Assembly (NCBI RefSeq): GCF_004010195.1
Contig: NC_057721.1
Coordinates: 15,043,561 to 15,106,113 of the forward strand
Direction of reading: 5' to 3'
DNA: 62,553 bases
From: Chiloscyllium plagiosum
Lineage: Eukaryota
The first letter of the stretch is position 1, and each line of letters starts with the position of its first letter. The position numbers and the translations under genes were made by a program. The notes under the pieces are model-generated. The model was not told the origin of the DNA, searched no databases, and worked only from the letters and a program-made list of their open reading frames with translations. This document shows, one piece after another, positions 1 through 50,091 of the stretch.

Positions 1-637
1 TCTCCAATTTAATAATATCCTTCCAATGGCAGGGTGACCGTAACTGTACAGAATACGCCAAAAGTGGCCTCATCACCATCCTGTACAACCTCAACATGAT
101 GTCTCAATGGTCTGAGCAATGAAGGCAAGTGTGCCAGACGCCTTCATTGCCACTCTGTTTATCAGTGATACAACTTTCAACGATCTATGAACATGAACCC
201 TTAGATCTTGGTTCAATAACATTCACCATGGCCTGACCATTAACTGTGTAACTTCTGCCGAGGTTTGTACCAACGAAATGCAACACCTCATACTTATCCA
301 AATTACACTCCATCTGCCACTCTTTGGGCCATTGGCCCAACTGATCAAGATCCCTTTGTATTCTTAAATAACCTTCCTCATGAATCAATTAAAATTCTGA
401 TTAAAAGAATGTTCTCAAATACTCAAATTTGTCAAAATAAAAACAGATATTCAAACATCTTTTTCAAAACACTTCTATCATATTAGTAGTATGATAAAGC
501 AATTAAAAAAAGTTACCTCCACAACTGTACTAAACTGAATTAAATCCTCAAGTGAGGTATGGAACTCAGTTTAGCGTTAATAATGATTTGACAATCCATA
601 ACCTAATAAACCACTCCCAAACTCTCAAGTGCAATAC
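1..637. repeat. Copy 1 of a near-identical direct duplication (offset 1987 bp; continues off the window edge)
   Basis: 1-637 aligns to 1988-2624 with only a few substitutions. ORFs 185..388 and 2172..2375 are almost identical. Confidence 0.95.
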
Positions 638-1205
638 CACTTTTCAAACCCTCATACATCCTGAGTGAATAAAGCACTTTTGAAGTGTAGTTACAATGCC
701 AGGAGCATGGTTGCTTGTTGATGCTTAGCAAAGAGCCATGAACAGAAATGTGAAAGGCCAGTTATTCTGTTTTTTGTAATGTCGTTTAAGGGATGAATAT
801 TGACAATGATACCAGAGTCAGCTATCCTGTTCTTTGTTGAAATACTCATAGAGCCATAGAGTCATAGAAATGTACAGTGTGGAAACAGACCCTTCAGTCC
901 AACCCGTCCATGCCGACCAGCTATCCCAACCCAATCTAGTCCCACCTGCCAGCATCCGGTCCATATTCCTCCAAACCCTTCCTATTCATATACCCATCTG
1001 CCAAAGGATCCTGCACATCCACTCAGCAGGCTAAGTCTCAGTTTAGCATTGCGCTTGTTGTTATGCTCCACCAACAGTGCAATGCTCCCTCAAGTGCTGC
1101 ACTGAAGTATCAACCTTGAATTTTGTGTTCAAGCCTGAAAGTGGAATGGGACTTGAATCCAGGATCGTGCAATTCAGCAGCAACTGTGCTATTCACTGAG
1201 CTATG
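638..1205 (-). mobile_element. Deu-domain tRNA-derived SINE (SacSINE1/AmnSINE-like), interrupted by a HER1 3' fragment
   Basis: Reverse Deu domain (ttttgaagtgtag...gggatgaatattgac) and reverse tRNA head (gggacttgaatcc...cactgagct). Confidence 0.75.
846..999 (-). mobile_element. HER1/CR1 LINE 3' end nested in the Deu-SINE
   Basis: catagagtcatag tail followed by tgtacagtgtggaaacagacccttcagtccaac, the same end as the other HER1 copies here. Confidence 0.9.
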
Positions 1206-1546
1206 GTTAATAGTTAGAAGAGTAGAAGGGTATTCATTAGAGGGTTGAATAGACAGTTGTCCTTGCTGCAAAAGGTCATTGAACTGCAGCTCAATTTGCC
1301 TATCAGGGATAAGTATTGGGAAAATCAAGGAAAGGCAGTTTGGTTAATTCACTCAATAGAAGATGAATTGGTGCCTTTTGCCTGTGTTGGAAGTAACAGC
1401 AAAAGAAACATTGGGAGTGTCCCGAAATAGGTTTGGAAATTAAAAGAAGCAGGAGCAGGACGTTGGATTTTCTAGGAAACATTGCCAAATGCAACAACTT
1501 CTTGAAAAGGATTTTGGGGGTAACCAGTTCTTAGACCCTAAACAAA

Positions 1547-1630
1547 AACTCTGATTTCTCTCCACAGATGTTGCCAGAACTGCTGAGCTTTTCCTGCAAT
1601 TTGTTTTTATTTCCAGCATCCACAGTTCTT
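1547..1630 (+). mobile_element. PLE terminal-repeat (pLTR) 3' fragment
   Basis: aactctgatttctctccacagatgttgccagaactgctgagctttt matches the post-hammerhead part of the pLTR at 26282-26345. Confidence 0.7.
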
Positions 1631-1640
1631 ACAACGTTTT

Positions 1641-2367
1641 TCCCTTCAAACCTTTCCTATTCATGTACCTATCCAAACGTCTTTTTGTAACTGTACCTGC
1701 ATCTACCACTTCCTCTGGCAGTTCATTCCATTTACAAACCAACCTCTGTGTGAAAAGGTTGCCCCTCAGGTCCCTTTTAAAGTCTCTCTCTCACCTTAAA
1801 ATTATGCCTTCTAGGTTTAAACCAGCCCATGCTAGCAGAATGAGCCTTGTAATTCATCTTATCAATGCCCCTCATGATTTTATAAACCTCTTTAAGGTCA
1901 TCCCTTAACCTTCTACAAGTCCCAACCTATCCTTACAACTCAAACCCTCCAGTCCTGGCAACATTCTTGTAAATCATTTCTGCACCGTCTCCAATTTAAT
2001 AATATCCTTCCAATGGCAGGGTGACCGTAACTGTACAGAATACGCCAAAAGTGGCCTCATCACCATCCTGTACAACCTCAACATGATGTCTCAATGGTCT
2101 GAGCAATGAAGGCAAGTGTGCCAGACGCCTTCATTGCCACTCTGTTTATCAGTGATACAACTTTCAACGATCTATGAACATGAACCCTTAGATCTTGGTT
2201 CAATAACATTCACCATGGCCTGACCATTAACTGTGTAACTTCTGCCGAGGTTTGTACCAACGAAATGCAACACCTCATACTTATCCAAATTACACTCCAT
2301 CTGCCACTCTTTGGCACATTGGCCCAACTGATCAAGATCCCTTTGTATTCTTAAATAACCTTCCTCA
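1641..2367 (-). mobile_element. HER1/CR1 LINE RT C-terminal fragment (partial duplicate at 1-380)
   Basis: ORF EEGYLRIQRDLDQLGQCAKEWQMECNLDKYEVLHF is typical of CR1 RT. Confidence 0.9.
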
Positions 2368-2624
2368 TGAATCAATTAAAATTCTGATTAAAAGAATGTT
2401 CTCAAATACTCAAATTTGTCAAAATAAAAACAGATATTCAAACATCTTTTTCAAAACACTTCTATCATATTAGTAGTATGATAAAGCAATTAAAAAAAGT
2501 TACCTCCACAACTGTACTAAACTGAATTAAATCCACAAGTGAGGTATGGAACTCAGTTTAGCGTTAATAATGATTTGACAATCCGTAACTTAATAAACGA
2601 CTCCCGAACTCTCAAGTGCAATAC
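1988..2624. repeat. Copy 2 of the direct duplication
   Basis: Matches 1-637. Confidence 0.95.
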
Positions 2625-3329
2625 AGTAGTCTTTGAAGTTATGCAAGCAAATGACCAATTATCTGTTCATTTTTTTTCATACAAATGGACTTTCAATCAT
2701 GTGGTTTGGCATTAATTCAGTGATTTTAAGGGCTGAACAGGTATCTGGACTTAAAAGTGAAAGAATCAAGGCATAGTGTCAAATGATATTTTAAAATCAG
2801 ACTCAATTCTTTTGAGTGCAGAACAGTACTTTATCCAGTTGATTTGATGGCCAATTTTTAAGGACAAAGAGTCATATATTCAATTACAGCATGAAACTAG
2901 ATTTAAACCAATACAATATTACAATATGATATTTGAAGTTGACAAAAGCTTTTAAATTTAACTGTCAAAATGTACCTGACTCTATAATGAGCTTCCCTCA
3001 AAACATGTATCAACTGACCTAATGTGTTTCACACAAGCTGCATGAACCTACTTGCCTCACTGAAGAACTGGAATATTCACAATTGAATAGGCATTTCGAA
3101 GGCTAAACCTGGCATCTCTTAAAGTGGGGTGTTAGTTTGCTACTTGTCACATTTCCAGCACTGGTAAAAATGACAATCAGCAGGAATTAGGTAGGAAATC
3201 GGAATTTAATTTTCAAACACCTCCATCTTAGACTGTCCAACATGGATTTGCCCAGTGCAGGATGACAAGATCTGACCCATGAAGTATAAAATTGGAAGAG
3301 AAAGGCTAATAGTTTAGACATCAGTTTTA

Positions 3330-3895
3330 GGCCTCTGGAACATGCCCAACTTTGATACTATAGTTTAAATAGGATGTGAAGACACTGAAAGGGTGAGAGG
3401 TGGTGCACTAGAATAGCATCAGGACTTGAATTCTGTGGACTGAGTAGGGAAGCTGGGATTGTTCTCCCTAGAGCAGAGGCAAAAGTCAATTTTCCTGCTT
3501 ATCGGATATTGCCTGGCCTGCTATACTTTTCCAGCTCCACTCTAATCTAGATTCCTTCGAGCAGAGACAGCTCAGCAGAGATATGACAAGGGGGCATTCA
3601 GAATTATGGGAACTTTGGTAAGGAGAACTATCACTAGCAGGAAGATTAGCAATCAGTGAACACAAATTAGAGATCAAGAACCAGAGGGACAATGAGAATT
3701 GTTTGACACAGCATGTTGCTATGTGAACATGCTATCGAAACAAATGATGAAAGTAAATTTCAAAAGAGAATTCAGTGCATACTTGTGATGGAAATATTTT
3801 CAGCATTATGGGGAAAAGATCAGGGGAGTGGAATTAATTGGATCGCTCCTCCAGTGAACTGTACAGTGTGAATGGCTTCCTTCTAGGCTGACATT
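3330..3895 (+). mobile_element. Old CR1 LINE 3' fragment containing a PLE pLTR piece (3485-3555)
   Basis: Degenerate CR1 ORF2 end (aagctgggattgttctccctagagcagag). gagcagag recurs on both sides of the insert. Confidence 0.65.
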
Positions 3896-29205: not shown

Positions 29206-29334
29206 CTGACAATAAATAACCATTTGTAAAAATCAAAAGTGAAGTTTGGTAGAAGAGATTCCTGATTCCAGAAACAGAGCCCATGTATTATTTTCCAGGT
29301 TTGCCAATGGTCATTAACTGCTTCCAATACACTT

Positions 29335-29580
29335 TAAACCATATTGCTGAGAGCCTGAAATCACATCGAGGCCAATCTAGATAAGGATAACAGATTTCCT
29401 TTCCATTAGGGAATCAGATAGCTTAAAAGTGACCATTGTTGTGATCAAAAACTAACTCTTTGTTCTATACTTTCATCCAATTCAAAATTTTATCATATAA
29501 GTTTGGGATTTGAGCACATGACCCTAGAATATTAGTCTGAGTTTCAGGGTTGTGACAGTACCACTGCTCTACTGTGCACC
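29335..29580 (-). mobile_element. Bipartite SINE copy retaining its tRNA-like head
   Basis: Minus strand: gcagtggtactgtcac...cagactaatattctaggg...ctcaaatccc, then ggaaatctgttatccttatctag. Homologous to 31911-32160. Confidence 0.6.
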
Positions 29581-30710: not shown

Positions 30711-31047
30711 TAGTCATGATTTGGAGACGCCGGTGTTGGACTGGGCTGTACAAAGTTAGAAATCACACAAACACCAGGTTATAGTCTAACAGGTTTATTT
30801 GGAAGCACTAGCTTTCGGAGTGCTGCTCCTTCATCAGGTGAGTGTGATGAAATCATTATCAGGAGAAAGCAGGAATCTGGATCTGAGGTTCCCATCAATC
30901 AGCCATGATATTATTAAAAGACAGAACTTAAGGAGCTGACTGGTTCTTAATTCATCAATCACCTGATGAAGAAGCAGCACTCCAAAAGCTAGTGTTTCCA
31001 AATAAACCTGTTGGACTATAACCTGGTGTTGTGCGATTTCTAATTTT
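30711..31047. mobile_element. Inverted pLTR pair enclosing captured local DNA
   Basis: Arms at 30711-30841 (-) and 30958-31047 (+). Spacer 30850-30955 matches 31653-31763. Confidence 0.9.
30806..30840 (-). ncRNA. Minimal hammerhead ribozyme motif (CUA site)
   Basis: CAC-CTGATGA-A-GGAG.CAGCA.CTCC-GAAA-GC-TA-GTG, identical to 6488-6522. Confidence 0.75.
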
Positions 31048-31154
31048 GAGAAAAAAAGACCATCAGAGATGATGGGTTGTATTATTGGAGGACAGTACAG
31101 AAATAGAGGGGACAAGAGCACGGAGGAATTTAAAGATGAATTGTAGACATAACA

Positions 31155-31770
31155 AATAATTAGAAAAGCTAATGGAATATTGTAATGTCGCACAGGCAGA
31201 AATAGAGAGATTATGCCTCAGTTATATAGCTGGAGACAATGGCTGGAGTATTGTGTACAATATCTTTAAGAAAAGATGTAGGTGCATTAGAGACAATTCA
31301 GACAAGGTTTATTAGACTAATACTTGGAATGGATAGACTGTCTTATGAGGAAAGGTTGGACATGTTAACTTTGTATCTGCTGTTCAGTAGAGTAAGAAGA
31401 GACTTGATTGCAACAAAAAAGATCCTGAGGGGTTTTGACAGGGCAGACGTAGAGGGGAAATTTCCTTGCATGGGAGAAGGTAGAATTAGGGGGCTCCCTA
31501 TTTTAAAAAAATCAATGGTCATCCATTTGAAACAGTTGAGGCAAATTTTTTTCTCAGTATGTTCTTCAAAATTCTTCCTGAAAAGGTGGTGGTGGCAGAG
31601 TCCTTGAATATTTGTAAAGGTGAAGTAATGGATTATTGTTAAGCAACAGGATAAATCATTATCAGGAGAAGGCAGGAATCTGGATCTGAGGTTCCCATCA
31701 GCTAATCCATGATACTATTAAAAGACACAGCAGACTTAAGGAGCTGACTGGTTCTTAATTCATGTGTTCA
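31155..31770 (+). mobile_element. CR1 LINE 3' fragment
   Basis: ORF LRKDVGALETIQTRFIRLILGMDRLSYEERL. Confidence 0.88.
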
Positions 31771-31904
31771 TCTGAGATGATCATTTTAAAATTCAACTGT
31801 TGGTGGACCAGCATCTGCTAAACAATTTGGGATAGGAGTGCGAGAGGCGTAAGTGTTATTACGTCGCAGCAACATTTTTGATAAATTGAGATGTGTCCTA
31901 AGAG

Positions 31905-34405
31905 TAGTTGGAAGTGTAGTGGTATTGTATTTGCACGAATAATCCTGAACTTCAGTGCAATGTCCTGAAGACAGTTTTGAATCCCACCAGGGCAAATGGT
32001 GGAATTGGACTTCAAACACTTCAGGAATTTAAAGTCTAATGATTACCATAAAATCATAGTAGATTGGTGTCAAGAAAAACCTATTTGGTTCACAGTGACC
32101 TTTACAGGGAGCAAACTACAGCCCTTTCCTGGTCTAGTCTACATCTGACTGCAGACCCACAATGTAATTGACTTATAATAGCCCACTGCAATGGCCTAGC
32201 AAGCCACTCAGATGTAGCAAGCTACTGAAAATTCTCAAGGAAGGAATGAAATTGGATGAACTAGCTTTAGTGATTGAACTAGGGACCAAACATCAACTGC
32301 AAAATCCTCTTTATTAACATGGAGACTAGTGCTGAAATGAGAAGAACTGTGGATGTAGGTTTGCTCGCCTGAGCTGGAAGGTTCATTTTCAGACATTTCG
32401 TCACAATACTCTGCGGTGAGCCTCTGGACGAAGCACTGCTCATGTTTCCTGCTTTCTGTTTATATGTTTGTGTTTCCTTGGGTTGATGATATCATTTCTT
32501 GTGGTGATGTCATTTCCTGTGCTTTTTCTCAGAGGGTGGTAAATGGGGCCCAAGTCAATTTATTTCTTGATAGAATTCTGGTTGGAATGCCATGCTTCTA
32601 GGAATTCTTGTGCATGACTCTGTTTGGCTTGTCCTAGGATGGATGTGCTGTCCTAGTCGAAGTGGTGTCTTTCCTTATCTGTGTGTAAGGATACTAGTGA
32701 GAGAGGGTCATGTTGTTTTGTGGCTAGTTAATATTCATGTATCCTGGTGGCTAGTTTTCTGCCTGTTTGTCCAATGTAGTGTTTGTTACAGTTCTTGCAC
32801 AGTATTTTGTAAATGGCAGTAGTTTTGCTTCTTGTCTGTTTTAGTGTGTTGGTGGGTTTGTGGGTTACCATGGTGCCAAGGGGTCTGAATAGTCTGACAG
32901 TCATTTAAGAGATGTCTTTGATGTAGGGGAGAAGGGCTAGGGTTTCTGGACGTGTTTTGTCTGCTTGTTTGGGTTTGTTGCTGAGAAATTGGCGGACTGT
33001 GCTCATTGGGTACCCATTCTTTTTGAATATACTGTATAGGTAATTTTCCTCTGCTCTGCGTAGTTCTTCTATGCTGCAGTGTTTGGTGGCTCGTTGAAAT
33101 AATGTTCCGATGCAGCTTCGTTTGTGAATATTGGAATGATTGCTTCTGTAGAAGAACAGTCTCATATCAGTCAAACAACACCCTGATTCAGCATTCTTTA
33201 AGAATCATATCATACAGGCAAGGTTTCAAACAATACCATCACTTTCACTGGAAGGACAGATCCAGTGTTGGTGGCACAGTGGTATACAGTTGGGAAGGAA
33301 TTGGCCTGGGATTCGTCAACATTGCCTCTGGACCCCATGAAGTCACATGGTATCAGGTCAAACATGGACAAAGAAAAATTTCTGCAGATTACTAAGTACC
33401 ATTGCTCTCAGCTTATGTATCTGGGTTCCACCATGTTGAACAATACTTGATGAAAGCACTGAGTATGGCAAGGGCACAGATGTTGCTCTGGGTGGGGGAC
33501 TTCAATGTCCACTGCCAAGAGTGGCTCAGTAACACTACTTGAAAGGGTTGTTTCTATACTGGATATGCACGAGTAGTGAAACCTCTAGGCACCAACCTGC
33601 CCACTATAGATGCACCTATCCATTACAGTATTGGTAGGTGTGACTGCCTTGAAAATTACCGTGAGATGACTTCCCATCTTCATATTGAGGATACCCTCAA
33701 TCATGTTATTTGACTGTGCCATTTGCTAAATGGGATAGATTTTGAACAGACATTAGCAATTCAATACTGGCATCCATGTAGTGCTGTGGGCCATCCACAG
33801 CAGCAGAATCATACTCCAACACAATCTGCAGCCTCAGCTTAGCATATCCCTTAGTCAACAATTACCACCAATCCACAGGATCAACCCTGGTTCAAATGGA
33901 GAGTTCAGGAGGGCATGCCAAGGAGCAACACCAGCCTTTCCTAAAATTGAGATGTCAACCTGGCGAAACCAAACTGGACTACTTGCATGCCAAATGTCAT
34001 AAGCAGCAAATGATAGACAGAGCTAAGTGAGCCCACAACCAATAAATCAGATCTAAGCTCTGCAATCCTGCCTCATCCAAATGTGAGTGGTGGTGGACAA
34101 TTAAACAGCTCACAGGAAGAGGTGCTCCATAAATATCCCCAGCTTTAACAGTATAAGATCAGGCTGAAGCATTTGCAATAATCTTCAGCCAGAAGTGCTG
34201 AGTGGATGATCTAATTCAGCCTCCTCCAGTGGTTCCCAGCTTCACAGATCCCAGTCTTCAGCCAATTCAATTTGCTCCACATGATATTAAGAAACTATTG
34301 GAGACACTGGATACTGCAAAGGTTATGGGTCCCAATATCATGCAGATTGTAGTACTGAAGACTTTTGGTCCAGAACACAGAGCAGTCCTGGCTAACCTGT
34401 TGCAG
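31905..34405 (+). mobile_element. CR1-like LINE with a tRNA-like 5' head and APE endonuclease, no visible ORF1; interrupted by a PLE
   Basis: A-box-like gtgtagtggt (31914) and B-box-like gttttgaatccc (31974). Protein motifs KILFIN (32301), HWKDRSSVGGTVVY, LWVGDFNVH (33486), QPWF and IKKLLETLDTAKVMGP. Confidence 0.75.
32351..33149 (-). mobile_element. Poseidon/Penelope-type PLE, 5'-truncated
   Basis: RT thumb SNHSNIHKRSCIGTLFQRATKHCS...KNGYP and GIY-YIG AIYKILCKNCNKHYIGQTGR. TSD agaagaac(t/a)gt. Confidence 0.92.
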
Positions 34406-35448: not shown

Positions 35449-35647
35449 AGGTCACTAATAGCCTTTAAGGGAAAAAATCTGCCATCCTTATGTGGTCTGG
35501 GCTACATGTGACTTCTGTATATCTGAAGTGCAGGTGACTTTCAATTGCCCTCTGTAATGCATGAGTAAGCCATTCAGTTTAAGGACAACTAGGGATGGGC
35601 AACAATGTTGGACTTGCCAGTAACATCCACATCCAATGAAGGAATGC
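35449..35647 (+). mobile_element. Bipartite SINE: LINE 5'-UTR segment joined to the LINE 3' tail
   Basis: 35449-35578 aligns with 32087-32211. 35580-35647 resembles the reverse complement of 10625-10680. Confidence 0.7.
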
Positions 35648-36830
35648 AATTTTAAAAATTATGACAATGATCACATTTACCTTCAGGCCATGAAAAGCAT
35701 GACGTAAATACAAATAGTTTTTCCTTTTTGCCACAACCACCCTTGGTGTTAGTAACCTCCACATTCTCACAATTCTCCAAGTAAAAAGGCTTCTCCTGAG
35801 TTTCTTCGACTCTATTCTGTTAGTTAAACTATAGGAGTTCTTGAGTTTGTGAAAAGTGTTACATAAAAGCATTTTGTTTTAGCACGAACACTTTCACCAG
35901 GAAGCTAAACTCTCATCGCGGAAAGGTCACTGTTAACTCCGATTTGTCTCCACAAATGTTGCCAAACCTGCTCAGGTTTTCCAGAAATGTTTGTTTTGTT
36001 TCACACTGAGGCCTCCTCCATCTGCAGCCAAATGAGCAAAGAGCCGCTCGGATATTCCTCATTGTACTTTTACATTGCTGCAACAAAGCCTGTTCTCCAG
36101 ATCACTGCGATTCACAAGCAGTTTATATTAATCTCATCTCATTAAAGGGCTTGGAATTGATAGAAATTGATCAAATAAAAAGGCCATTGAAATAGTTGAT
36201 GCTGTTCTTCACTCCATCAGGATTGTGGCTGTGCGAGAAGCCTGGTGGTATTAGCCTGCACAAATCTAATTTATTCTCTCAATTCCCACTTGACTCCACT
36301 GTGTTGATTTGACTTTACATTGCCAAGAGATGGGTTGCTGCTCATGAAGATTGATGGTAGTGATTTGATCGAGGAGAGATGGTTGCTCATTGTGAGAAAC
36401 TGCAATGATGCGCAGTAGTTGGTTAGGAGCAGAAAAATAGAAATGCAACAGTGTGATTTTAATAAAACATATCCTTTTACAGCTGACTGCTTCAGGCTAA
36501 TACAACAATTCAGCAGCATTTTAGTGTCATATCCTTGGCAGTTAACCTGAGCTTTCAGTTCTATATGATAAATACTATTTAATATCTGAAAGCTATGGTT
36601 ATATTGCGTAAGATCTAGGCTCCATACTGTAACTAATATTTATACATTACATTATTTATAAAATACGTGTCTACATTCTAACACCTTCAAGAGAGTCTGA
36701 TTAATTATGTGATACTGCAGGAAATAAGCTTTATCTTGTTGCATTGTTTTCAAATGGTAATAATTCAACCAGAAGCTTCACTATTTCATTTATTCAATTT
36801 TTCCTTGCCTCACGTGATCTTCTGTCTTAC

Positions 36831-43700: not shown

Positions 43701-46318
43701 ATCTGTCAAGGTAAGTTTAATTCTGGGAACTAAATTGTCGACTAATAATGCCAGCTGGGATCTAAACAACTGGTTATTGGACACAATGGAAGCAAGGGGT
43801 TTTGGGACACAGCGAGATAGTGTGGTTACTGTAGAAGATCAACCACAACCTTATTTCATGACAATGAGCTTTAAGGATCACATTGCCTTTGTTCCCATTT
43901 CTGAAGCTCTAATATACTTAACATACTTGTGAACTGTGGACCATTGTTCAATAAATTTCTATAGTTATGACCTGAAAAATCACAAATATTACAGTAATTC
44001 ATGAACTAGCAACATTTTAGAATTTGCTTGTTACACATCCCATTCAATTTATCTTTCCACTGATTGCAATGTTGAATGGATTCCCAGGTAGACGAGTAAA
44101 AGTAATCACCATGCATTAATTTGAAGAACACAGAAATTGAGGGAGGAAAGAACATTTCTGTGTGAATCAGTAAAATTTGGACTGAATTGTCTGACTTTGA
44201 GGACAGACCTTTAATCATTTGAAAACAAACATTGAGTCCACTCACCTTTGCAGCACCAAAAATGGCCTCAATGCCCTTTGGTAGGAGAGTAAATTGGCTA
44301 CTGTTCCTGCTCCTAACTGACGTGCAGTAAACTCTGGTGAAACTGTATGGTTGTCCTTCTATGTTAAAATAACTTGCTGCCCTTCAATATAAAAGCTCAC
44401 ACTTGGGTACCTGGATGAAGTATCAAAACAATAATGACTTGGACACCATGCCCACCAAAAATGCAACGTAAAAGCAGCATATAATCTTGTGTACAAATAT
44501 AGATCATCGGAGATGTACAGCACTGAAATAGACCCTTCAGTCCAACTTGTCCATGCCGATCAGATATCCTAACCTAATCTAGCACCATTTACCAGCTCTT
44601 GGCCCATATCCCTCCAAACCCTTCTTATTCATATATCTATTCAGATGCCTTTTAAATGTTGTAATTGTACCAGCTTCCACCACTTCATCTGGCAGCTCTT
44701 CCCATACACGCACCACCCTCTGTGTGAAAAGGTTGCCCTTTAGGTCTCTTTTATATCTTTCCCCTCTCACCCTAAACCTATGCCCTCTAGTTCTGGACTT
44801 CCCCAGGGAAAAGATCTTGTCTATTTATCCTATCCACGCCCTTCATGATTTTATAAACCTCTATCAGGTCACCCCTCAGCTTCCGATGCTCCAGGGAAAA
44901 AAGCCCCAGCCTATTCAGCCTCTCCCTATAGCTCAAATCCTCCAACCTTGGCAGCATCCTTGTAAATCTTTTCTGAACCCTTTCAAGTTTCGCAAGTTTC
45001 GTCCCTGCGATAGGAAGGAGACCAGATTTGGACGCAATATTCCAAAAGTGGCCTAACCAATGCCCTGTGCAGCCACAACATGACCTCCCAACTCCTATAT
45101 CCATTGCTCTGTCCAATAAAGGAAAGCATACAAAACACCTTCTTCACTATCCTATCTATCTACAACTCCAGTTTCAAGGAACTATGAACCTGCACTCCAA
45201 GGTCTTTGTCAGCAACGCTCCCTAGGACCTTACCATTAAGTGTACAAGTCCTGCTCTTGTGGCACCTCGCATTTATCTAAATCAAACTCTATCTGCCACT
45301 TCTCAGTTCATTGGCCCATCTGATCAAGATCCCATTGTAATCTGAAGTAACCTTCTTCACACCTCCAATTTTGTGTCATCAGCAAATTTACTAACTATAC
45401 CTCTTACGCTCACATCCAAATCATTTATATAAATGATAAAAGTAGTGAACCCAGCACCGATCCTTATGGCACTCCACTGGTCACAGGCCTCCAGTCCAAA
45501 AAGTAACCCTCCACCATCCTCTGTCTTCTACCTTTGAGCCAGTTCTGTATCCAAATGGCTAGTTCTCCCTGTATTCAATCTGATCTAACCTTGCTAATCA
45601 GTCTCCCGTGAGGAACCTTGTTGAACACCTTACTGATGTCCATTTATATCACATCTACCACTCTGCTCTCATCAATCCTCTTTGTTACTTCTTCAAAAAC
45701 TCAATCAAGTTCATGAGACATGGTTTCCCACCCATAAAGGCACGATGACTACCCCAATCAGTCCTTGCCCTTCCAAATACAAGTAAATCCTGTCCCACAG
45801 GGTTCCCTCCAACAACTTGCCCATCACTGATATCAGGCTCACTGGTTTATAGTTCCCTGGCTTTTCCCTAACACTTTTCTTAAAAAGTGGCACCACATTA
45901 GCCACCCAGTCTTCCAGCACCTCACCTGTGACGATCAATGATACAAATATCTCAGCAAAGGGCCCAGCAATCACTTCTCTAACTTTCCAGAGTTCGAGAG
46001 TACACCTGATCAGGTCCTGGGGATTTATCCACTTTTACCCATTTCAAAACATCCAGCACTTCCTCCTCTGTAATCTGGACATTTTTCAAGGTATCACCAT
46101 CTATTTCCCTACAGTCTATATCTTCCATGTCCTTTTCCATAGTAGACACTGATGCAAAATACTCGTTTAGTATCTCCCCCATCCCCTGCTGCTCCACACA
46201 AAGACAGCCTAGCTGATCTTTGAGGGGAGAAAGTGAGGTCTGCAGATGCTGGAGATCAGAGCTGAAAATGTGTTGCTGGAAAAGCGCAGCAGGTCAGGCA
46301 GCATCCAGGGAACAGGAG

Positions 46319-46354
46319 AATCGACGTTTCGGGCATAAACCCTTCTTCAGGAAT
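46319..46354 (-). ncRNA. Minimal hammerhead ribozyme motif (GUC site)
   Basis: ATTC-CTGAAGA-A-GGGT.TTAT.GCCC-GAAA-CG-TC-GATT. Confidence 0.75.
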
Positions 46355-46388
46355 CCTGAAGAAGGGCTTATGCCCGAAATGTCAATTC
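46351..46388 (+). ncRNA. Minimal hammerhead ribozyme motif (partner, CpG-decayed)
   Basis: GAATC-CTGAAGA-A-GGGC.TTAT.GCCC-GAAA-TG-TC-AATTC. Confidence 0.6.
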
Positions 46389-47733
46389 TCCTGTTCCCTG
46401 GATGCTGCCTGACCTGCTGCGCTTTTCCAGCAACACATTTTCAGCTCTGATCTTTGAGGGGCCCAATTCACTCCCTAGTTACCATTTTGTCCTTAAATGT
46501 ATTTATAAATTCCTTTTATAAGATTCGCCTTAGCCTTATTTGCCAAAGCTATCTCATGTTCCCTTTTTGCCCTCCTGATTTCTCTCTTAACTATACTCCT
46601 GCTACCTTTATACTCTAAGGACTCACTCTGTCTATCCTGTCTATATCTGACATATGCTTCCTTCTTTTTCTTTACCAAACCCTCAATTTCTCTCGTCATC
46701 CAGCATTCCCTATACCTACTACCCTTTCCTTTCACCCTAACAGCTGTGTACTATCTCTGGACTGTCATTATCTCATTTCTGAAGGCTTCCCATTTTCCAG
46801 CCGTCCCTTTACCGGCAAACATCTGCCCCCAATCAGCTTTTGAAAGTTCTTGCCCTATACCGTCAAAATTCACTTTTCTCCAATTTACATCTTCAACTTT
46901 TAGATCTGGTCTATCCTTTTCCATCATTATTTTAAAACTAATAGAATTATGGTCGCTGGCCCCATTGTGCTCCCCCAATGACACCTCAGTCACCTGCCCT
47001 GTCTTATTTCCCAAGAGCAGGTCAAGTTTTGCACCTTCTCCAGTTGGTACATTTACAGACTGAATCAAAGTTTTCTTGTACATATTTAATTTCCTGTCCA
47101 TCTAAACCCTTGACACCATGCCAGTCCAAGTCTATGTTTGGAAAGTTACCATACCATAACCACCCTATTATTCTTACAGATATCTGAAATCTTACAAATT
47201 TGTTTCTCAATTTCCTGATGACTATTAGGGGATCTATAATATTATCCCAACAAGGTGATCATCCCTTTATGTCTCAGTTCCACCAAATCATTCCCTGGAT
47301 ATATTCCCAGGAATGTCCTCTCCAATTCCATCAGTAATGCTATTCCTGATCAAAAACTGGACTGCCCCTTCTCTCTTGCCCCACCTTACACACACCCCAC
47401 ACACCCACCCCACCCCTGCATCCTTCATGTAGCATTTACATCCTGGAACATTAAGCTGTCAGTCCTGTCCATTCCTGAGCCATGTTTCTGTAATTGTTAT
47501 GATATCCCAGTCCCATGTTCTAACCATGCCCTGAGTTCATCAGGCCTTCCCTGTTAGGCCTCTTGCATTGAAGTAAATGTAGTTTAATTTATCAGTCCTA
47601 CCTTGTTCTCTCCTTTGTTCATGCTTGCCCTAACTGTTGAATTCACTTCTTTTCCCAACTGTACCAATCTCAGATTAATCTCTTTCCTCACTACCTCTCT
47701 GGTTCCCATGCCTAAACCCACCCCCCCACTAGT

Positions 47734-48560
47734 TTAAATCCTCCCGAGCAACTCTAGAAAATCTCTCTGCCAGTTTACTAGTCTCCTTCCAATTCTATTG
47801 CAACCTGCCCTTCTTGTCCACATCACCGCTACCCCAGAAGAGATTCCAATGATCCAAAAAAATGTTAATCTTTCTCCCCTGCACCAGCTCCTCAGCCATG
47901 CGTTCATCTGTTCTATCCTCCTATTCCTACCCTCACTAGCTTGTAGCAGCGGGAGTGATCCAGATATTACTACCCTCAAGGACTTCCTTTTCAAAATTCC
48001 TTTCTATATTGTCCCTTCAGAATCTCATCCTTTTCCCTTCCTATGTCATTAGTTCCAATGTGTTTCTTCTGGTCCCTCTCCCCTTTGAGAACATTCTGCA
48101 CCCTCTGAGATATCCTTGATCCCGGCTCCAAAGAGGCAACACACCATTCTGATTTTCCACTGCTGACCACAGAAATACCTCTGACTAGAGAGAGAGTCCC
48201 CTATCATAAAGCAATTGCTTGGAACCTGATGTACCCCTCATTACATTAGAGCTTGTCTCAATACCAGAAACTTGGCTGTTCATGCTACCTTTCCCCAACA
48301 CTTTACAAAACAGCAAACTTGTTTGAAATGGAGATAGCCACAGGAGACTCCTGCACTACCTGCCTACCTTTCCTGGAGTCAACCCATTTACCTGACTACA
48401 ATTGCCATCCATCACACCCCCTAGCTCTTGTAAATTCCTTATTGCCTCTAACTGCCACTCCAATCAATCCATACAATATGATAGGGTTCACAACCAAAGA
48501 CACTTGCTGTAGACAGTAACATGGAAATTCTCCCTGAATTCCGAAGAGCATATCACTGTA
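47734..48560 (-). pseudogene. HER1 ORF1 (SGNH/GDSL esterase-like), frameshifted
   Basis: RVVISGSLP...RNRRIEQMNAWLRSWCRGE is typical of the CR1 ORF1 esterase. The 5' limit is approximate. Confidence 0.8.
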
Positions 48561-50091
48561 CTGAAAGCCATCTTTGCTCCTTCACAATCTACAGACCCAG
48601 AAAATAGCATCCACTTTTTACTCCAAAAAAAGTGCTCCAGACTAACCTAGTACTTATGGTTTATATTTTTAAAATGTAATCAAGAGACAGATCTAAATAA
48701 TATATAATCAAGAAAAAGCCCGCTTTATTCACTACTGTAGACTTACAGCAAGGTTACACTTAAAAACTATGCACGTATCTGTTCCTGTGCTGTGTTGTCA
48801 CCCACACTGGTCCCTCCAAGGCCAGCTGTGAATTTTGCAATTTGTTAAATTTTTCCTCGACGCACTCTGATGTCCAGAGATACATGAACTCAAACAGCAA
48901 GTGCAGTAGCTGTGCAGATTCACTGCTGTGTCAGACAGCAGTGTAGGTTTCTTTCTCTTTCTCTCTCTCCCTCACTGACCATGTGGTCACTGCCTCTTGT
49001 CTGTCTTCTTCCCTTTAAAAAGTGTCATTGTTTTGATCTTTCTCCCCCCCAAAGTTCCAAAACAATACAACAGCATATAAAAATTAATTGCTGCTCCTCG
49101 AATTTAAGGAAATCACCTCCAACACCTAAAATACCTTAAAAAAGAAAAAAAAAGAGCAACTTGTACAGCCACTAGTTTTTTTATTGTGTACAAATCTGCT
49201 TATTGATGACAATGCTATAACTTAGCATTCAGGAGTTGCATTAAGCGCTTTAAAGTAAGAGGTAATATGACCAGCTATTCCTTTGTTCAATTAAGAGTAG
49301 AGAGGAATGTCTAGTTCACATTGTTCCAACTTCAAACTCTTTATTCCTCTGCATCCAACTTTCATACTAGATTAGTGTCAAACATGAAACAGCTTGTATT
49401 GTTATGGGTAAAGATGTTGACTGACAGATTAGAAAGCACTGCATGATATTTAAGCTTATGTAATAATACACAGCATGAGGTGGTATCCCTACTGTAATTA
49501 CATACAAACCATGCTGCTGAATGTCTAAGATTTCAAGTGCGGTGTTTACTAATTTTCTTCACGAATGTTGTGTTCAGTGTTGTACAAATTTACTTTTTTC
49601 AAATCAAACAAGCACAGCTGTACATAAAACAATATCCAAAACATTTACATTTAATATTGTATTAAACACTGAATGCAAGGCAAATATGCTGAAGAGCATT
49701 CGATTCACAAAATGTATAGTCCTCATTTCTCACTATTTATAAAAGTATTCTAATTTATCTATTTTAGATTACTTCACATTTTCCCATAATGAACTCCATT
49801 TACCATGGTTTGCCCACTCATTTAATCTAATGACATCTCTTTGCAATGTTTTATTCCCATTTGCACTATTTACTGTGTCACTTAATTTAGTGCCATTTGT
49901 AAACTTGGATATCTGTCCTAACAGTGCTCTCCTCTCCTGTGGATCACTGAGGTTTCAGTGTGGCTGGTTCTCTGATTGGACCAAAACAATATAGAGTCCA
50001 CCAGCCATCTTAACCGGGCCACACAACTGTGGTAAAATGGCTGAGGCAGCACTGCCACCTTGCTGCTGACAAGAACAAGATCAACATTTGT

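Follow-up and report, generated by a model that had tools for sequence, protein, structure and literature searches.

Zenon LINEs, as described by Stuart et al., 2026 (PMC13343379), lack ORF1 and carry a poly-A tail; they make up 0.7-6.8% of the genome in five elasmobranch species and 0.02% in the elephant shark, and 'CR1-Zenon like' elements have been named in the whale shark (10.1101/443036). The elasmobranch members of that catalogue share with the copy described below a 5' head, a leader, an endonuclease start and the lack of ORF1; unlike their consensuses, our copy is dead, interrupted, and without reverse transcriptase (RT) and tail. The word 'tRNA' does not occur in the main text of PMC13343379, where the head and its reading as a Pol III promoter go unremarked. 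The usual division assigns Pol II to LINEs and Pol III to short, non-coding SINEs, with a brief mention, in one review, of LINE promoters that are 'pol II (or pol III)' (PMC3894237); a 3.3-kb coding LINE driven by a tRNA promoter would, if true, break this division.

Other retroelements resemble parts of this arrangement. RTE-1_DAn and related elements are likewise LINEs with tRNA-like sequence, matching many SINE2 families (Kojima, 2018, PMC5786205), but they belong to the RTE clade, and their tRNA-like part was filtered out as a nuisance match. In the crocodilian Tx1 LINEs Tx1-2_Crp, Tx1-4_AMi and Tx1-11_Crp and in SINEU, a coding LINE and its partner SINE share a head derived from a small RNA (U1/U2; Kojima, 2015, PMC4494074); these heads contain no internal promoter, however, and the oligo-T of SINEU excludes Pol III, whereas in Zenon an A and a B box are present in the head and T-runs are few. 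The bipartite SINEs Bov-tA, SINE2-1_ACar and CoeSINE4 combine a tRNA head with the 5' part and the tail of a LINE, a layout that fits a short repeat in our window (35462-35650), but their donors are LINEs without a tRNA head, found only in RTE and Vingi; Zenon would be a further clade (PMC5786205). The TRIMp3 elements Cassandra, Helenus and Ajax likewise have a Pol III promoter from a small-RNA gene, but are short, non-coding and of the LTR type (PMC10886601). SacSINE1 and HE1 are tRNA-headed shark SINEs (PMC5499810, PMC4824008), the former with a Deu body and an L2 tail, the latter with a V body, and can be set beside the Zenon leader by description only. A search to which subscription journals, Repbase, Dfam and bioRxiv supplements were external returned no paper on a tRNA head of Zenon or on Pol III transcription of an autonomous LINE.

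The window, which is the whole stretch of 62,553 nucleotides of Chiloscyllium plagiosum DNA analyzed here, contains at 31902-34405 a decayed copy of an elasmobranch Zenon LINE; elements of this kind are retrotransposons about 3.3 kb long with a single ORF. This family is abundant in sharks and rays and is already catalogued (PMC13343379); its tRNA-like head is the part that went unremarked. The order within the copy is tRNA-like head, leader, AP-endonuclease start, Penelope fragment, and rest of the endonuclease. As the copy ends before the RT, it is the match to the published consensuses that points to Zenon.

The head (31902-31990, plus strand) forms the 5' end of the element; by eye, it runs colinear with the initial 90 nt of seven Zenon consensuses, and multi-copy read depth sets in with the bin at 31901. 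In a pattern scan, it shows an A-box-like motif at 31912-31922 (two mismatches to TRGCNNARYGG) and a B-box-like motif at 31974-31984 (two mismatches to GGTTCRANYCC), a stringency at which box pairs are frequent across the whole window (8 on its plus strand, 24 on its minus strand), many of them in other repeats. Neither ARAGORN nor Rfam finds a tRNA at the head, and its folding is not better than that of shuffles (z 0.40); a hairpin between the boxes (31950-31970), in place of a long variable arm, gives z -1.99 (8/200 shuffles). Taken alone, the boxes of the window copy are weak; they are convincing because the published consensuses have intact boxes at the matching places. By eye, the sequence of the inter-box hairpin differs among the species of the seven consensuses yet remains paired, and the acceptor stem is unpaired. 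The head may resemble a tRNA with a long variable arm, such as tRNA-Leu. Rfam matches to U2 (32163-32274, minus strand, E 1.4) and to a pseudoknot (E 8.3) were dismissed as chance.

Downstream of the head lies a non-coding leader or 'body' (31991-32211, plus strand), of which 32099-32211 is common to a short repeat and whose folding is not better than that of shuffles (z 0.23). It is followed by an A-rich linker specific to the LINE (32212-32300, plus strand), which by eye is some 20 nt longer in the stingray consensus, and by the start of the AP-endonuclease frame (32301-32347, plus strand), which reads KILFIN (KVLLTN in relatives), is frameshifted, and ends in the left of two target duplications (32340-32347). 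The earlier note had described box motifs, a leader of about 320 nt and a direct start of the endonuclease; with boxes at 31912 and 31974, 316 nt from the end of the B box to the KILFIN codon at 32301, this description holds. Between the head and the Penelope insert, the longest stop-free stretch is 55 codons, and the window copy therefore has no ORF1. The esterase ORF1 that precedes ORF2 in canonical vertebrate CR1 elements is thus absent and would find no room, as the note had proposed, in line with the description of Zenon as a family without ORF1 (PMC13343379). What does not stand is the view that this lack is unusual: the family is Zenon rather than canonical CR1, and ORF1 is lacking in Zenon as well as in Rex1 and clade-B L2 (PMC13343379). 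The element at 44499-49183, adduced as a typical CR1 for contrast, has CR1-type ORF2 pieces by eye, but its esterase ORF1 is not borne out, 47737-48003 matching 0 Pfam families. Of the traits of a SINE2, the copy has the 5' A and B boxes, in decayed form, but it is not short and non-coding, as an endonuclease frame follows.

In the region of 32243-32320, an ATG after an A-rich stretch is kept, by eye, in six of the seven consensuses and in the window copy. In the stingray consensus, this conserved ATG is by eye out of frame with the endonuclease, whose own frame is an Arg-rich run without ATG; no in-frame ATG precedes endonuclease motif I there. The lack of an in-frame ATG would fit either a cap-independent initiation at a non-AUG codon or the use of the conserved out-of-frame ATG together with a shift.

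The endonuclease is interrupted by a later insertion, the 3' fragment of a Penelope-like element (32348-33149, minus strand), identified by Pfam, by its flanking duplication and by its very high multi-copy depth; its minus strand encodes a GIY-YIG piece (Pfam E 0.0035, below the curated cut-off). It is flanked by an 8-nt target duplication, AGAAGAAC, at 32340 and 33150. The right duplication (33150-33157) opens the last part of the copy (33150-34405, plus strand), assigned by tblastn, Pfam and depth, which contains the remaining endonuclease and the stretch before the RT, is broken by stops and frameshifts, and is truncated at its 3' end. The flanks of the insert, translated separately, together keep the motif order of the relative P0003. 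By tblastn, shark relatives are matched in KDR..GG, GDFN, QPWF and the RT-proximal stretch (E 4e-18 to 9e-12), with endonuclease and RT-proximal pieces found at 33170 to 34378 by P0003, P0004, P0007, P0010 and P0012. This confirms the proposal that the LINE can be read across the duplication-flanked Penelope element. The copy thus has the AP-endonuclease motifs of an APE-type LINE; in Pfam, the GDFN region matches Exo_endo_phos_2 at E 0.0017, below the cut-off, and Exo_endo_phos(_2) at E about 0.001-0.002. The copy breaks off at about 34405, before the RT; no RT family is found by Pfam in 16 plus-strand frames downstream, no target duplication of the LINE was found near its broken 3' end, and none of the best 15 of 1762 read joints skips the Penelope insert. 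With RT and tail missing and the frame interrupted, the copy is dead and in itself ordinary debris. The label 'autonomous' given to this hybrid in the earlier note can thus be kept for the family, where the legible part of the published table lists 0-3 copies with intact ORF2 per family, but not for this copy.

Just upstream of the LINE, two inverted Penelope-type end pieces at 30751-31048 enclose 106 nt of sequence that recurs at 31653-31763 with 90% identity, which suggests a long duplication or a nested insertion.

The question of whether the junction of head, leader and endonuclease recurs was addressed with the consensuses in Table S2 of Stuart et al., 2026 (PMC13343379), of which the first 400 nt each were compared by eye. 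All seven elasmobranch Zenon consensuses, from five species, begin with the head and leader of the window copy: CarCar_Zenon-1, RhiTyp_Zenon-1, ScyCan_Zenon-1, HypSab_Zenon-1 and SquAca_Zenon-1/2/3 (white shark, whale shark, catshark, stingray and three from dogfish; 2886-3314 nt). In all seven, the first base is G, the A box lies at about +6 to +11 and the B box some 45-65 nt later, the B box of the stingray consensus being one base short. A 16-nt motif of the window leader is present in five consensuses; a motif of the consensuses lies at 32130 in the window, with three mismatches. The endonuclease start is visible within the first 400 nt of two consensuses; with HypSab_Zenon-1, the window copy is identical by eye at 21 of 24 positions in 32297-32320, and over 400 nt it is colinear by eye with the published consensuses. 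Among the first 400 nt of the consensuses (1,003 by the paper's count), six B-box words match six rows, all of them elasmobranch Zenon; shorter B-box words also match unrelated rows, at internal positions. The first 400 nt of three further Zenon consensuses, two from hagfish and one from coelacanth, show no such head by eye. The junction is thus not unique to this locus; since all seven elasmobranch consensuses share head and leader, it is not a chance neighborhood of a SINE and a LINE.

These consensuses were made by seed extension (PMC13343379), a procedure that might carry a consensus from the shared leader on into an abundant SINE; the lengths of individual insertions and the locus itself, held on a single contig, argue against such an artefact. 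The top single insertions are 3299, 3299, 3322, 2870, 3220, 3240 and 4347 nt long, for consensuses of 3288, 3293, 3314, 2886, 3283, 3096 and 3244 nt, respectively; in all seven families, the top insertion is at least as long as the consensus or within 63 nt of it, and whole copies therefore include the head. At the locus, head, leader and endonuclease start lie on one 642-nt contig (run X1, record 1, 31747-32388), from a run that may be the window's own sample, and the orthologous place is covered by overlapping contigs of two related organisms (X12, 31732-32228; X18, 31977-32368).

In all three DNA runs, multi-copy depth jumps at the bin at 31901 (10 to 1690, 17 to 3831, 8 to 1154) and falls after 34400 (6627 to 30, 15429 to 73, 5272 to 18); rise and fall coincide with the element's two ends. 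Depth is at single-copy level at 32262: at 80% likeness, the reads of other copies do not span the linker. The recurrence of the junction would thus be carried by the published consensuses rather than by reads of this genome.

A phmmer search of 1.84 billion proteins returned 13 matches, seven of which belong by inspection to the Zenon family (P0003, P0004, P0007, P0008, P0010, P0012, P0014), and five of these are, by name, models from whale shark or horn shark; the other six, unrelated repeat proteins, were dropped. A word-indexed protein search gave no match with two pieces of the window, and a single 269-aa model with P0003. Related loci were not found in viral, metagenome or prokaryote collections, the sole GTDB match (L001) being an 18-nt chance match. 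Three shark gene models (P0010, P0014 and P0024; a CWC25 homolog, a kinase-like model and another) contain translated Zenon pieces, by exonisation or by annotation error.

The best reading of the tRNA-like head is that it serves as the internal Pol III promoter of the whole element, which we regard, with modest confidence, as likely: the first base of the consensuses is a G, about 6-11 nt upstream of the A box, much as in a tRNA gene, and the boxes and the pairing of the inter-box hairpin persist across sharks and rays. TFIIIC would bind the A and B boxes and Pol III would start about 6-11 nt upstream of the A box, every full-length copy thus bringing its own promoter; selection would have acted against TTTT terminators on the sense strand; translation of the uncapped RNA would proceed cap-independently through a structured leader; and ORF2p would copy the RNA of the element by target-primed reverse transcription. 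The short repeat that shares the leader would be a likely internally deleted derivative, or else the donor of head and leader, and the window copy would later have been struck by the Penelope fragment and have lost its RT half. Translation is the weak step, since transcripts of Pol III carry no cap. Two points of general knowledge speak against the Pol III reading, the shortness of Pol III products, with SINEs of 100-700 nt, and the poor translation of uncapped RNAs (see also PMC10886601); the start of ORF2 translation has been called an open question (PMC3894237).

T-runs bear on the same point. The sense strand of the window copy has three T4 runs in 1691 nt, fewer than three CR1 stretches of the window, which have 45 in 6845 nt (6.6 T4 per kb; one-sided p 0.009); the three in the copy lie in the mutated B box, in a premature TGA, and at a site where relatives code Cys. 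Since each is explicable as later decay, the source element probably had no T4 in this part. The depletion of TTTT anticipated by the earlier note is thus seen against neighboring CR1 sequence but is not significant against shuffles of the copy itself (1 vs 1.6 and 2 vs 3.8 expected), and the sense strand of the Penelope element is likewise without T4. By eye, there is no TTTT in the first 400 nt of the seven elasmobranch consensuses, and there are several in hagfish Zenon-1. In a single-cell RNA run (X21, 2% read, 676 reads), depth over the LINE is under 8, with a sense bias that is shared by the Penelope piece; no transcription start site is found in these reads.

Extended to the family, the Pol III reading becomes a scenario that we hold tentatively, judging it nearly as apt to be right as wrong: since before the split of sharks and rays, an autonomous, coding Zenon LINE, reaching up to about 7% of the genome, would have been transcribed end to end by Pol III from a tRNA promoter that it had captured, with TTTT purged across its 3.3 kb, an uncapped RNA translated without an in-frame AUG, and a SINE partner that is the same element minus its ORF. 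If true, it would provide a natural example of a translated Pol III RNA, and a direct route from LINE to SINE by internal deletion, for which no new head is needed.

That the head belongs to the LINE but the element is transcribed by Pol II is unlikely, although LINE transcription is ascribed to Pol II (PMC5786205, PMC10886601) and a capped RNA would solve the problem of translation. The head would then either act as an internal promoter co-opted for Pol II, or fold like a tRNA and be excised by RNase P from read-through host transcripts, much as HDV-like ribozymes free the RNAs of R2, RTE and Ingi. Of the Zenon-like copies of the whale shark, 39% are intronic (10.1101/443036), six LINE clades have self-cleavage at their 5' end, and paired arms persist in the Zenon head. 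RNase P needs an acceptor stem, however, and this stem is unpaired by eye in the consensuses, where the A and B boxes are conserved; nor would Pol II transcription lead one to expect the scarcity of T-runs, given the 6.6 T4 per kb of the neighboring CR1 elements.

Improbable to a similar degree is that the head is a passenger. Here the master LINE would start in the leader with Pol II, and the SINE would consist of tRNA head, LINE 5' part and LINE tail, following the bipartite model of Kojima, established for RTE and Vingi (PMC5786205); headed LINEs would arise by template switching or recombination in the shared leader, and BLAST extension would add the SINE head to the consensuses. A short repeat sharing the leader is in fact present in the window, the consensuses were built by seed extension, and reads do not span the linker; against this stand the single insertion with head to endonuclease on one contig (X1; orthologous place in X12 and X18), the top insertions at consensus length in all seven families, and the junction itself, where no SINE tail or A-run is found. 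A mere chance SINE beside a 5'-truncated LINE at this one locus is very improbable: head and leader are abundant, with one certain and one doubtful further copy within 4 kb, but the junction has neither tail nor duplication, and in the consensuses of five species head, leader, linker and endonuclease start follow one another in the same order and at the same spacing.

A separate short, non-coding repeat at 35462-35650 (plus strand) consists of the LINE leader up to the start of the linker, followed by a different tail; a head is not recognizable. Its part 35462-35577 is identical to 32099-32211 at 81 of 111 positions (score 43; none of 1000 shuffles exceeds 30), the likeness ending exactly where the linker of the LINE starts, and the consensus leader motif is present in both. 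The layout is that of a SINE sharing head and leader with the LINE, likely the partner SINE of Zenon; in the text of the supplement of Kojima, 2018, the leader motifs were not found. On the minus strand, 29300-29575 could be a very old copy of head and leader, with A- and B-like boxes at 29571 and 29516; it resembles the 5' end of the LINE no better than shuffles do (708 of 1000 as good), but the copy at 35 kb better than nearly all (1 of 1000), and its identity as a head and leader copy is doubtful.

Two further repeats lie elsewhere in the window. At 46253-46453, a Penelope-type end inserted in a CR1 copy forms an inverted repeat of 100 nt that is near-perfect (97%); and 1-300 and 1988-2287 form an identical direct repeat of at least 300 nt with a spacing of 1987, either a recent tandem duplication or an assembly artefact.
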